4,211 nucleotides of DNA from a virus. Taxonomy: Duplodnaviria > Heunggongvirae > Uroviricota > Caudoviricetes. The notes beneath the pieces are model-generated. The model ran no database searches. It saw only the letters and a list, made by a program, of their open reading frames with translations, and was not told the DNA's origin. How positions within the stretch are numbered: position 1 is the stretch's first letter; each line of letters opens with the position of its first letter. Of the stretch, positions 990 to 4,144 are shown piece after piece. The position numbers and the translations under genes are program-made. The stretch is taken from IMG/VR virus record IMGVR_UViG_2636416140_000003; one strand, written 5' to 3'.

Positions 990-1231
990 CTGATAACTCA
1001 TGCAAGCGTCTCAGACGACCCACTGACACTACCGGTGAGTTTAACGATACCTTCCATTTGACTGGCTCACTTTTTATGATGATGCCGGTGCATTTATCTC
1101 CAGCACCAGACTTTCTATCTCAACGCCATACGTTGCATTTTTGGTAATATCCGTCAGCGTCAGTGCATTTAGTCCCACTGCCAGACTGTCTTTTATGGCC
1201 TGGAATGCCGGGCCAGTACGATGACGTAGTA

Positions 1232-1420
1232 TCACTCCGGCTCAGTTGCACCACTGACCACCACATCACCTTCTGCTGCAATCGCCTGCATCAGGGTATA
1301 AGGGGTTATGGCCACCGGACTACCAAACGGCTGCCAGCCCTCTTTCAGTTTATGTGTCAGCTTTTCCGCAAGATCTGACGGCGGCGCCGCCCTGACAACA
1401 TCATAGTGTTTAAATGCCAT
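1232..1420 (-). CDS. Small conserved prophage protein, DUF1737-like, 62 aa from the second ATG
   Basis: The ATG at 1418-1420 is preceded by GGTGGAAAG about 6-8 nt upstream; the first in-frame ATG at 1435 lacks a Shine-Dalgarno. Sequence MAFKHYDVVRAAPPSDLAEKLTHKLKEGWQPFGSPVAITPYTLMQAIAAEGD... resembles small proteins I recall from just upstream of the holin in lambdoid/Stx prophages. Family name is from memory. Confidence 0.55.
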   Translation of the reverse strand: MAFKHYDVVRAAPPSDLAEKLTHKLKEGWQPFGSPVAITPYTLMQAIAAEGDVVVSGATEPE

Positions 1421-1679
1421 GGTTCTTTCCACCATCTGAAAAATAATTCTTTAAAATACCTGACATGTAATACAGAAAAAACACAAAACCATACCTTAAA
1501 TAAAAACCTGATTATCAAGCAGATATGCATGGATAAACTACAAGACGAGATATAAACCACCCTGCATTTAAATAAACAATAAACAACATCAGAAAAATAA
1601 TTCTGCTCTATGGTTTAATTCAAAAATATCATTTATACTTTTCAGAACATCACCAGCAAGGCATAAACAAGGAAACTAA
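1421..1679. promoter_or_regulatory. AT-rich intergenic region between divergent genes (minus 1232..1420 and plus 1680..2015); probable divergent promoter region
   Basis: About 260 bp of very AT-rich sequence with many TTGxxx / TAxxxT hexamers. No single -35/-10 pair could be assigned with confidence by eye. Confidence 0.3.
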
Positions 1680-2015
1680 ATGAAGTGGATTGTGATTGAT
1701 ACAGTTATCCAGCCATCATGCGGAATATCTTTTTCAGTCATATGGAGTAAAATAAAATTAATAATCTGGTATCAATCGGATGCTTTCTTACCTCCTGAAA
1801 GTATATTTACACTGACTCACACAGGCATCATGCTCAATAACAAAGTGCTACCTGTAACCATTTACAACGTAGTACCATTCAATAAAACATTCTGGAATTT
1901 AATCAAAAACAGCCAGGAATGCCCTACAAATACAGATAACGTATTGAATGAATGCTTTAATAACCGTTGCACTCTGCAAATATGTCCTTATGGACTAAAA
2001 CAACAAAGTCCATAA
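1680..2015 (+). CDS. Hypothetical AT-rich cargo protein, 111 aa, five Cys (four in the C-terminal 30 residues); no recognisable family
   Basis: ATG at 1680 preceded by AAGGAA (1669-1674) with a 5-nt spacer. An uninterrupted 111-codon frame in such AT-rich sequence is unlikely by chance because stop codons are AT-rich. Contains 6 ATA codons (residues 16, 21, 25, 28, 42, 102), the codon read by the adjacent phage tRNA-Ile2. Confidence 0.45.
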
Positions 2016-2035
2016 GGAGTTTACTCACATCTGAC

Positions 2036-2070
2036 AAAATCAATATAAACAGCCCCTCCGGAGAGGGGCT
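2036..2070 (-). terminator. Hairpin terminator, minus-strand orientation, possibly bidirectional, between the convergent cargo ORFs
   Basis: Plus strand 2051-2070 AGCCCCTC-cgga-GAGGGGCT forms an 8-bp GC-rich stem with a 4-nt loop. On the minus-strand RNA it is followed by GUUUAUAUUGAUUUU (U-rich); on the plus strand an A-rich tract precedes it but no U-tract follows. Confidence 0.45.
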
Positions 2071-2462
2071 GGAGAGTGGCGCTATGTGCCATTGCATGGT
2101 GCCGGGTGCCTCCCGGTGAATTCAGTACCAGCACCTGAATCCGCGATTATCCCATATACCTACTCGCTGATTGCCCCTCCGCACAGGGGGATTCACCATG
2201 CCAGTTTCTTTTAACAAACTCCCCGCAAACCAGACAACAGTCAACCGCCTGAATTGTGAAGTATTTAAAAATTTCTCCCGCTAACTGATACCCGGCTAAC
2301 AGTCTGGCGTTTTCTTTTTCAGCAACGGGAAAGCAACAACCACCACACCCGCCACCAGCACACCGTCAGCCGGCACTGACATTATCCGGCTGCTGCAATG
2401 CCATTCACAAAAACAGTAAGCAATCACTTTTTACCGTAACAGGTGATAATCCAGATATGTAT

Positions 2463-2816
2463 CTACCCCAGATGAGTAATCCGAAGTTCATCCATACCAC
2501 AGGTCCTGGCTATTCTGTTGTACTCCTGAACAAGAGCAAATAATTCTGAATTAGCAACCATGAACTCATCGCAAACCCTCTGTATAGCATCACTATTCAG
2601 AATAATAACGTCTCTTCCCGAAAGACGATCAGGAGTACAGAACAAAACTGTCAAACGGCTGAAGGCCTTTGCTCGTGCTGCATTGACTATATCAATACGC
2701 TGCCTAAGGATGAAACACCCCGACGCCTCATCAATATTCACTCTACCCACACCATATGAATGATAAATACTTAATGCTGAAAAAACCATTAGACCGTATA
2801 ACAAATACTCAATCAA
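2463..2816 (-). CDS. Hypothetical cargo protein, 117 aa from TTG at 2816 or 108 aa from ATG at 2789, with an N-terminal hydrophobic segment; no recognisable family
   Basis: Codon-by-codon reverse-complement translation confirms the frame, ending at TAG 2463-2465. The first start is TTG; the first ATG is at residue 10 (2787-2789). Contains 3 AGA, 3 AGG and 3 ATA codons (9 of 117), matching the two tRNAs immediately upstream. It lies directly downstream of Q, pR', tR' and the tRNAs, the slot that stx occupies in Stx phages. Confidence 0.5.
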   Translation of the reverse strand: MIEYLLYGLMVFSALSIYHSYGVGRVNIDEASGCFILRQRIDIVNAARAKAFSRLTVLFCTPDRLSGRDVIILNSDAIQRVCDEFMVANSELFALVQEYNRIARTCGMDELRITHLG

Positions 2817-2926: not shown

Positions 2927-3003
2927 TGGCGCGCTGTACTGGATTCGAACCAGTGACCGATTGCTTAGAAGGCAATTGCTCTGTCCGGCTGAGCTAACAA
3001 CGC
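2927..3003 (-). tRNA. argN: tRNA-Arg, anticodon UCU (reads AGA/AGG), argN/argU-like, 77 nt with encoded CCA
   Basis: Reverse complement is GCGTTGTTAGCTCAGCCGGACAGAGCAATTGCCTTCTAAGCAATCGGTCACTGGTTCGAATCCAGTACAGCGCGCCA. It folds as a cloverleaf: acceptor GCGTTGT/ACAGCGC (one G.U), D-stem GCTC/GAGC, anticodon stem ATTGC/GCAAT with loop CTTCTAA (anticodon TCT), T-stem ACTGG/CCAGT with loop TTCGAAT, discriminator G, CCA. Confidence 0.85.
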
Positions 3004-3103
3004 TGAATACCGATAATGGACCGCCATCGGGGACCCGCCCCCGCACCAACAACCCTGTTATCGTGTCGTCTGCTCTTCCTGATAAGCTAATGGCGGTTTG
3101 TGA

Positions 3104-3179
3104 TGGTGGCCCTTGCTGGATTTGAACCAGCGACCTGGCGATTATGAGTCGCTCGCTCTCACCACTGAGCTAAAGGGCC
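3104..3179 (-). tRNA. ileZ: tRNA with CAU anticodon, most likely tRNA-Ile2 (lysidine-modified, reads AUA), ileX/ileZ-like, 76 nt with encoded CCA
   Basis: Reverse complement is GGCCCTTTAGCTCAGTGGTGAGAGCGAGCGACTCATAATCGCCAGGTCGCTGGTTCAAATCCAGCAAGGGCCACCA: acceptor GGCCCTT/AAGGGCC, anticodon loop CTCATAA (CAT), T-stem GCTGG/CCAGC. The framework closely resembles E. coli ileX as I recall it, and Stx phages carry ileZ-argN(-argO) at this position. The CAU anticodon alone cannot exclude tRNA-Met. Confidence 0.8.
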
Positions 3180-3214: not shown

Positions 3215-3242
3215 CAATAAAAAACCCGCTCAGCGGCGGGTT
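3215..3242 (-). terminator. Rho-independent terminator tR' downstream of the putative late promoter (Q-antiterminated terminator)
   Basis: Minus-strand RNA reads AACCCGC-cgcuga-GCGGGUU followed by UUUUAUUGCG: a GC-rich stem of 5 GC plus 2 AU pairs and a U-tract, about 65-70 nt downstream of the proposed start site. Confidence 0.7.
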
Positions 3243-3280
3243 GTAGAAACTCTTCTAACGTCAGGCATAAAACGCCCATC

Positions 3281-3317
3281 ATTATGACGAATTTACCACA
3301 GATTCCGGAAAAATCAA
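3281..3317 (-). promoter_or_regulatory. Candidate late promoter pR' (-35 TTGATT, 16-nt spacer, -10 TAAATT) with a -10-like CATAAT element in the initial transcribed region (candidate sigma-dependent pause / Q-loading site)
   Basis: On the minus strand, 5 nt after the Q stop codon: TTGATT (plus 3312-3317), 16-nt spacer, TAAATT (plus 3290-3295), then cgtCATAAT. Lambda pR' as I recall it also uses TAAATT as its -10. Placement immediately downstream of Q and upstream of tR' matches the lambdoid late operon. Confidence 0.5.
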
Positions 3318-3322
3318 CCTTG

Positions 3323-4144
3323 TTACCTAGTTACCTTTTTTAACTGCCGCTCAGCCCATGCTTCTTCAATATCAAACCGGGTCACCAGCGCATCATAAAA
3401 TTTCTTAACTGTTTTTTCCCATGACGCGCGTGTTATCTGGTTTGTCACCTCGCATATAGCATTAAATGCCTCCGTTGATGGTAGTCTTTCATAGCCACGA
3501 CCACCACAACGCTGGCAGTCTCTGATAACAGGCATACCACGTTTTACCGACTCTTCACGATGAATGGCGACACCACGCCCACGGCAATCCTTACAGGCGG
3601 TGGAAACCTCACCCTTTCCGCCACACTCCGGACAGGCAACTTTTACCACCTCCCTGACTTTTTTCCATTCTTCCCAGTAAGACGGATACACACCTTTCGT
3701 ACACTTTGCCCATACCGGCGGCTTACCATCCGGATACTGGATCTTATTTGTAAAAACTATGCTTTCAATAAATTTTTCCCCATAGCAACAAGGGCACTGC
3801 TTTTTACTCGCTGCGCTGCGGGCATAATCCTCAAAAGCGTACGAAGCCATAATGCGCATCACTACCGGTTTTATTTCTGCCGGAAGTTTTCTCAACGCCG
3901 CCACACGATCGCACCGACTGAGTGCATAATCTGCCAGTAATTCTGTTGCCCGCGCCCTGTCATTCATACTGATGCCCATTTTCCCCAGGAACGCAGAAAA
4001 ACCCATCTCAGCCCGATTCTGTGTCATGCCCTGCGCGGCCATCACATCAGTGATACTCAGCGCATCTTTTGACGTTGAGGCCGATGCATCGGTCAGGCCA
4101 GGGGATTTTGGGGAGTAGTATTTCGGTAAATCTTCCAGTTTCAT
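3323..4144 (-). CDS. Q: Late-gene antitermination protein Q, large (273 aa) Q82/QuuQ-like type, with a Cys-rich zinc-finger region
   Basis: ATG at 4142-4144, TAA at 3323-3325. The protein has a CPCC motif and three CxxCxGxG motifs (CPECGGKG, CKDCRGRG, CQRCGGRG) within residues 117-217. It sits immediately upstream of the pR'/tR'/tRNA/holin arrangement. Family assignment is from recollection of prophage Q proteins and gene context, not a search. Confidence 0.75.
   Translation of the reverse strand: MKLEDLPKYYSPKSPGLTDASASTSKDALSITDVMAAQGMTQNRAEMGFSAFLGKMGISMNDRARATELLADYALSRCDRVAALRKLPAEIKPVVMRIMASYAFEDYARSAASKKQCPCCYGEKFIESIVFTNKIQYPDGKPPVWAKCTKGVYPSYWEEWKKVREVVKVACPECGGKGEVSTACKDCRGRGVAIHREESVKRGMPVIRDCQRCGGRGYERLPSTEAFNAICEVTNQITRASWEKTVKKFYDALVTRFDIEEAWAERQLKKVTR

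Follow-up and report, generated by a model that had tools for sequence, protein, structure and literature searches.

The window, by which we mean the whole 4,211-nucleotide stretch of DNA analyzed here, carries a prophage late operon on its minus strand, running from Q (4144..3323) through tRNA-Ile(CAT) and tRNA-Arg(TCT) to the holin and DUF1327 genes, and on the opposite strand an AT-rich cassette that encodes the anti-adaptor gene iraL. The cassette, its gene and their neighbors are as follows.

1232..1420, minus strand: DUF1737 ORF, a 5'-terminal remnant of a nanS-p-type sialate esterase gene, divergently oriented to iraL (Pfam DUF1737, 4e-17)
1422..2050, unstranded: AT-rich iraL cassette with promoter, 5'UTR, CDS and 35-nt tail (borders set against phage VT1-Sakai; GC about 32% vs 47.5%)
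1680..2015, plus strand: iraL CDS, 111 aa, RssB anti-adaptor (100% nucleotide and amino acid identity to CFT073 iraL; NF007393; 8TWD)
2041..2230, minus strand: STnc100-family (PasD-related) prophage sRNA gene, convergent with iraL (Rfam RF02076)
2296..2427, minus strand: 43-aa DUF3927 ORF (phrog_1470, 'TciB-like inhibition of cell division or resistance to colicin', classed as moron)
2463..2816, minus strand: 117-aa ORF with a TTG start (phrog_2873, unknown function, from internal Met10, 231 bits)
2927..3003, minus strand: tRNA-Arg(TCT), a prophage tRNA
3104..3179, minus strand: tRNA with anticodon CAT (called Met by ARAGORN; Rfam tRNA, 72.5 bits; tRNA-Ile, an ATA decoder, according to PGAP in CFT073 and JJ1886)

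Identity of the gene and its prophage setting

The sequence data clearly indicate that the 111-aa ORF at 1680-2015(+) is iraL, a gene already known and characterized, and we have no counter-argument to this identification. The ORF is 100% identical to CFT073 iraL (WP_000871291.1, annotated in CFT073, JJ1886, E275a and others) in both nucleotides and amino acids, and it shares 59.5% of its amino acids and 68% of its nucleotides with K-12 iraM. For CFT073 IraL, which is encoded on the potB island and whose transcript start was mapped by 5'RACE, identities to K-12 iraM of 58.9% (protein) and 67% (DNA) have been published (PMC4045071). By the standard of that study, in which IraL is set apart from IraM by a coding region that is, along its full length, 95% or more identical to that of CFT073 iraL and by about 59% amino acid and 67% nucleotide identity to K-12 iraM, the coding region of the window is that of IraL. 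The identification came from NCBIfam and from a sequence search of the PDB: family NF007393 (IraM) matched residues 1-110 at 162 bits (cutoff, 121), and the IraM chain of PDB 8TWD matched residues 1-78 at an E value of 9e-32. A Pfam scan of IraL and IraM returned no match even at an E value of 10, though precomputed labels assign PF11183 to members of the family. Phmmer matches of IraL to Kti11/Dph3 were weak (E = 0.26 to 0.9) and lay in the barrel rather than the Cys tail, and they were disregarded.

An earlier note, made from the sequence alone, had proposed that this ORF is a horizontally acquired cargo gene, pointing to its ribosome-binding site, its ATA codons and its C-terminal cysteines. 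These details proved accurate when checked directly in the sequence: AAGGAA at 1669-1674(+) is followed by a 5-nt spacer and the ATG at 1680, 6 of the 13 Ile codons are ATA (8 of 18 in K-12 iraM), and the five cysteines stand at positions 14, 81, 92, 97, and 102, four of them C-terminal. The proposal itself was borne out as well, and what the note had not recognized was that the gene is a known one, described in print as a prophage-borne 'horizontally acquired effector' (PMC4045071). The compositional contrast is likewise real, with a GC content of 34.5% in the ORF, 28.3% over 1436-1679 and 32.3% over 1421-2015, compared with 47.5% in the remaining window; the AT-rich region runs to 2050, however, and not to 2015 as had been thought.

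AT-rich DNA, a small protein and a cysteine cluster at the C terminus are also what one would expect of a chance ORF in spacer DNA or of a secreted disulfide-rich peptide, and we regard both of these readings as having a negligible probability. The earlier note had judged the open frame improbable by chance, and indeed an ORF of at least 111 aa arose in just 0.7% of 5,000 dinucleotide-preserving shuffles of the 629-bp AT-rich segment. The dN/dS ratio of iraL versus iraM is 0.155, and an exhaustive profile search recovered 93 cluster representatives at E <= 0.001 from several Enterobacteriaceae genera, with named IraL/IraM-family members in Citrobacter, Salmonella, Enterobacter, Kosakonia, Intestinirhabdus, Dryocola and Cronobacter. 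A signal peptide was rejected: in the solved homologue, residues 1-11 make up one strand of the barrel, and RssB, the known partner, resides in the cytoplasm.

The gene is widespread and intact. A megablast search with 1300-2200 found matches in 2,785 complete E. coli genomes, where the ORF is annotated 'anti-adapter protein IraM'; the iraL coding sequence is present in 1,446 of 5,426 complete E. coli genomes, with a maximum of 3 copies in one genome, and 1,157 genomes have it at no less than 99% identity. It also occurs, with unchanged gene order, in four phage records, and in PHROGs it is filed as phrog_4407, of 'unknown function'. Every one of the 8 copies that we compared (that of the window and 7 further loci) has an unbroken 111-codon frame; 7 encode the same protein and 1 a protein with two substitutions; frameshifts or stops in orthologous regions, which would have spoken against a functional gene, occur in none of them.

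Comparison with phage VT1-Sakai delimits the insert. Homology ends at 1421, the start of the nanS-p/DUF1737 gene, and restarts at 2051; these two breaks place iraL in a discrete 629-bp AT-rich cassette spanning 1422-2050. At the corresponding site VT1-Sakai has an unrelated 232-nt spacer, and the element that the two share lies about 230 nt downstream of stx1B. The iraL segment thus has the hallmarks of a moron cassette, being a discrete insert of deviant composition with its own promoter between conserved phage genes. We consider it nearly certain that the ORF is iraL, carried as a lysogenic-conversion ('moron') gene by a lambdoid prophage of the CFT073 potB-island/ST131 type, and that it encodes an RssB anti-adaptor.

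Downstream of the cassette, the hairpin at about 2051-2070 (9 pairs, -20.3 kcal/mol, z = -3.2) is real, as the earlier note had held, and has a T-run on the minus strand only. The note had taken it to be shared between iraL and the 117-aa ORF, which is wrong: the sRNA and the DUF3927 ORF separate it from the 117-aa ORF. The Rfam model RF02076 (STnc100) matches 2230..2041(-) over its full length (model positions 1-206) at 132.4 bits, against a gathering score of 47, and to judge from the sequence, the hairpin, at 2050-2071 in this setting, is the Rho-independent terminator of this STnc100-family sRNA. The 3' ends of iraL and the sRNA lie 25 nt apart. STnc100 is related to the PasD prophage sRNAs, and pasD lies directly upstream of the sialate esterase gene in an Stx-type phage (2026 preprint). 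A 'partial hypothetical protein' that PGAP places antisense to the sRNA, at about 2087-2212(+), is probably spurious. The 117-aa ORF itself has no Pfam or NCBIfam match and no PGAP annotation in CFT073 or JJ1886.

On the other side of the cassette, the DUF1737 gene, whose homologous start is 1420 and not 1435, is annotated by PGAP as a pseudogene that lacks its C terminus. A 53-aa ORF at 1074-1235(-) matches residues 582-632 of the 634-position profile phrog_143. It looks as though an internal deletion in a nanS-p-type sialate esterase gene left the DUF1737 ORF (1232-1420) as its N-terminal and this ORF as its C-terminal remnant. Full-length esterase genes adjoin iraL in other genomes. A second, strong terminator-like hairpin (963-991, 12 pairs, T-run on the minus strand) lies between the esterase remnants and the holin gene, in a slot from which PasA/PasC sRNAs have been described in related prophages.

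The remainder of the window is late-operon DNA upstream of the sRNA. The Q antiterminator (273 aa, 3323-4144(-)) has a match to a DnaJ-type CXXCXGXG zinc finger that falls below the Pfam cutoff. Between Q and the tRNAs, 3216-3322(-) has a sub-threshold Rfam Trp_leader match (26.7 bits) and, by eye, a GC hairpin with a T-run near 3222-3245(-); the late promoter, qut and tR' of the prophage are likely to lie in this interval. Between the two tRNAs listed above, CFT073 has one more (Arg); in the window, as in JJ1886, this stretch is strongly diverged at 3037-3075, and neither ARAGORN nor Rfam called a tRNA within 3004-3103 of the window. The CAT-anticodon tRNA lies 1.1 kb from the ATA-rich iraL gene, and a dependence of IraL translation on this prophage tRNA would be speculation.

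Promoter alleles and regulation of iraL

We placed the iraL promoter by homology to the RACE-mapped start of CFT073, which gives the following upstream features.

1569..1585, minus strand: PhoP-box-like direct repeat TGTTTAttgttTATTTA, 11/12, about 70 nt upstream of the putative iraL start and identical in CFT073
1614..1639, plus strand: iraL sigma-70 promoter region, with -35 remnant TTTA-AT (1614-1619) and -10 TATACT (1634-1639) (homology to the CFT073 5'RACE start; putative hexamer assignment)
1647..1679, plus strand: iraL 5'UTR including the Shine-Dalgarno sequence AAGGAA (1669-1674), with a start at 1647 predicted by homology

[quoted passage not shown] An iraL-type regulatory region would be one with the start, -10 and -35 of CFT073 and an upstream region at least 96% identical to it. 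Over 1421-1679 the window differs from CFT073 at 6 positions; the -10 element is identical, and a 1-bp deletion falls within the putative -35. The deletion, at 1617/1618, removes the C of TTTACA and leaves TTTA-A. Among the other changes are an A for G at -1 (1646) and, in the spacer that separates the Shine-Dalgarno sequence from the ATG, a T for C at 1677. We infer that TTTACA is the -35 hexamer of CFT073 iraL and that the promoter of the window allele may be weaker than that of CFT073 or differently regulated.

The deletion is common to the window, JJ1886 and E275a, and other genomes have further alleles of the -35 region, one with TTTACA followed by a different base and one with TTTATA. 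A census by 40-mer found the deletion allele in at least 166 complete genomes and the CFT073 allele in at least 285; these counts are lower bounds, because there are alleles beyond these two (TTTACAATC and TTTATATTC).

Within the cassette, a sigma-70 promoter belonging to iraL would drive its transcription antisense to the late operon, which depends on Q, an arrangement that suggests expression in the lysogen rather than in lytic growth. A canonical plus-strand terminator 3' of iraL was not found, the only downstream hairpin having its T-run on the minus strand, and in this one respect the cassette departs from a moron with a terminator of its own; iraL transcripts may consequently run antisense into the sRNA.

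Several leads bear on the regulation of this promoter. CFT073 iraL is expressed in log phase (PMC4045071), its expression is 1.6 log2 units higher at 37 C than at 23 C, and IraL levels rise in a fur mutant. The PhoP-box-like repeat should be read as a candidate only, since its score was reached by 20 of 1,000 mononucleotide shuffles and it was one of three motifs tried. In Fur-box and H-NS-motif scans of 1422-1700, the observed score was reached by 964 and 515 of 1,000 shuffles, respectively. The upstream regions of iraL and iraM cannot be aligned, so the PhoP regulation of iraM is not transferable to iraL by homology.

A different reading of these data is that the allele in the window is transcriptionally cryptic, kept off during ordinary growth by its -35 deletion and possibly also by H-NS coating of a cassette with 28 to 34% GC; any contribution to RpoS control would then be confined to specific signals or be absent altogether. 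This reading is compatible with the identification of the gene as an anti-adaptor, and we give it a clearly lesser but not trivial chance. In its favor, the 1-bp deletion lies within the putative -35 hexamer, and the authors who described IraL noted that a second JJ1886 copy has a -35 mutation and that its expression is unknown (PMC4045071). H-NS repression is reported for the paralogue iraM (Battesti 2012, as cited in later work), the 37 C response of CFT073 iraL is of a kind common for H-NS targets, and the DNA upstream of iraL has the PhoP-box-like site. The deletion allele has, however, been kept with an intact ORF in the 166 or more complete genomes of the census, the -10, putative start region and Shine-Dalgarno sequence are all intact, and the H-NS motif scan scored no better than about half of its shuffles. 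The earlier note had also likened the region to foreign DNA silenced by H-NS; the cassette is indeed AT-rich relative to the host, as such targets are, but the log-phase expression in CFT073 indicates that any silencing is at most partial.

RssB binding and the conserved cysteine tail

The protein divides into two parts, a predicted RssB-binding core and a cysteine-bearing tail.

1680..1913, plus strand: predicted PmrD-like beta-barrel core, residues 1-78, that would contact RssB (AF2, Foldseek, contact residues)
1920..1994, plus strand: Cys4 motif C81-P-x9-C92-x4-C97-x4-C102-P-Y-G105 (conservation among homologues)

[quoted passage not shown] By extension from these published results for the identical protein, the product of the window gene would bind the adaptor and response regulator RssB through its N-terminal receiver domain, RssB so bound would no longer deliver sigma-S (RpoS) to ClpXP, and the level and stability of RpoS would rise in exponential growth.

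Structure prediction, which the earlier note had proposed alongside homology searching, supports the same assignment. An AF2 model built on a 45-sequence alignment reached a mean pLDDT of 81.7, with about 86 to 96 in the core and about 50 to 63 in the C-terminal tail; with 16 close homologues the value had been 54.8, and the larger alignment mended the core, not the tail. Foldseek placed the model first on 8twd_A (TM 0.89, rmsd 1.2 A) and then on PmrD (2jso/4hn7/2rqx), and the core is an antiparallel PmrD-like beta-barrel with a flanking helix. The homologous IraM-RssB crystal structure predicts that residues 1-78 dock on the alpha4-beta5-alpha5 face of RssB. The IraM residues that touch the RssB N-terminal domain (cluster I) are identical in IraL at 5 of 5 positions, and those that touch the C-terminal domain and the linker at 3 of 5 and 2 of 4, respectively, a gradient that fits the reported binding of IraL to the N-terminal domain only.

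The shared fold also bears on the proposal that IraL is a PmrD-like connector for a response regulator other than RssB, which we consider very improbable. PmrD binds phospho-PmrA, and the PF11183 labels precomputed for family members point the same way. The identical protein nonetheless co-purifies with RssB and changes RpoS stability (PMC4045071), its identity to PmrD is only 13 to 20%, PmrD is without the Cys4 tail, and our own Pfam scan gave IraL no match.

In the structural work on IraM-RssB (8TWD), residues 79-107 were cut away because of their proteolytic instability, and the tail was described as flexible and less conserved. Our alignments indicate that its cysteines are robustly conserved. 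C14 varies, but all 16 close homologues retain C81, C92, C97, and C102, and these four are present in 43/43, 42/43, 43/43, and 42/43 full-length sequences, within a C-P-G-N...C...C...C-P-Y-G motif; this set comprises IraL and 42 representatives of other 50%-identity clusters that are 20 to 50% identical to it. Conservation of all four in at least 42 of 43 representatives also supports the view of the earlier note that the cysteines matter. The literature that we searched makes no mention of metal binding by the IraM/IraL tail. We tentatively raise the possibility, which we think has less than an even chance of being right, that the C-terminal 30 residues are a conserved Cys4 module that binds metal or senses redox and thereby sets the stability or activity of the anti-adaptor, and that the -35 alleles (TTTACA, TTTATA, TTTA-A) give strain-specific RpoS set points. 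Such a module, if real, would be an unrecognized input to RpoS proteolysis, and the tail would not be the dispensable, poorly conserved appendage that it has been taken for.

Significance and relation to known systems

IraL is a case of prophage rewiring of a core host stress circuit, the proteolysis of RpoS via RssB and ClpXP, and links of the gene to uropathogenic and Shigella lineages have been described. For the window itself, the value of this analysis lies in correct annotation, with the ORF assigned to iraL and the hairpin to an STnc100-family sRNA. Two leads emerge from it, namely, the natural -35 variation among iraL copies and the Cys4 conservation in a tail that structural work called poorly conserved.

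The closest known system is the CFT073 potB prophage, with which the window is collinear at 97.6% identity over 3,187 nt. CFT073 IraL (c1429) occupies the same slot, in the order Q, tRNAs, DUF3927, sRNA, iraL, DUF1737 remnant and holin, and its gene has the same -10, start region and Shine-Dalgarno sequence; CFT073 differs in having an IS200C insertion just downstream of Q and the middle tRNA-Arg, both of which the window lacks. JJ1886 resembles the window in its promoter deletion and in its tRNA layout.

K-12 IraM (YcgW/ElbA; PDB 8TWD) has in common with IraL the family NF007393, the length class, the beta-barrel core and the five Cys positions, and the two genes are alike in GC content (about 34%) and in their many ATA codons. 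IraM is, however, a PhoP-dependent anti-adaptor of Mg2+ starvation, a dependence not reported for iraL, and its gene lies at a different genomic site, next to e14. Binding by IraM involves both domains of RssB and binding by IraL just the N-terminal one (PMC4045071), and from IraM to IraL the contacts with the RssB C-terminal domain and linker differ by T13S, L75I, H63N, and I64V. RssC and other proteins called 'IraM' (Salmonella, Citrobacter, Enterobacter, Kosakonia, others) combine, like IraL, the core with a CPGN-x-C-x-C-x-CPYG tail; they are 20 to 50% identical to IraL, and W22, a contact with the RssB N-terminal domain, is not conserved in this wider family. PmrD (4HN7, 2JSO, 2RQX) has the same unusual beta-barrel and also binds a response-regulator receiver domain, but its partner is PmrA, and by sequence it is not a member of the family. 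Among lambdoid morons of the Q-to-lysis interval, stx1AB of VT1-Sakai is, like iraL, independently promoted cargo that lies by the same sRNA/terminator element and nanS-p. The stx genes are co-oriented with the late operon and encode a toxin, whereas iraL runs against the late operon and alters the stress regulation of the host.
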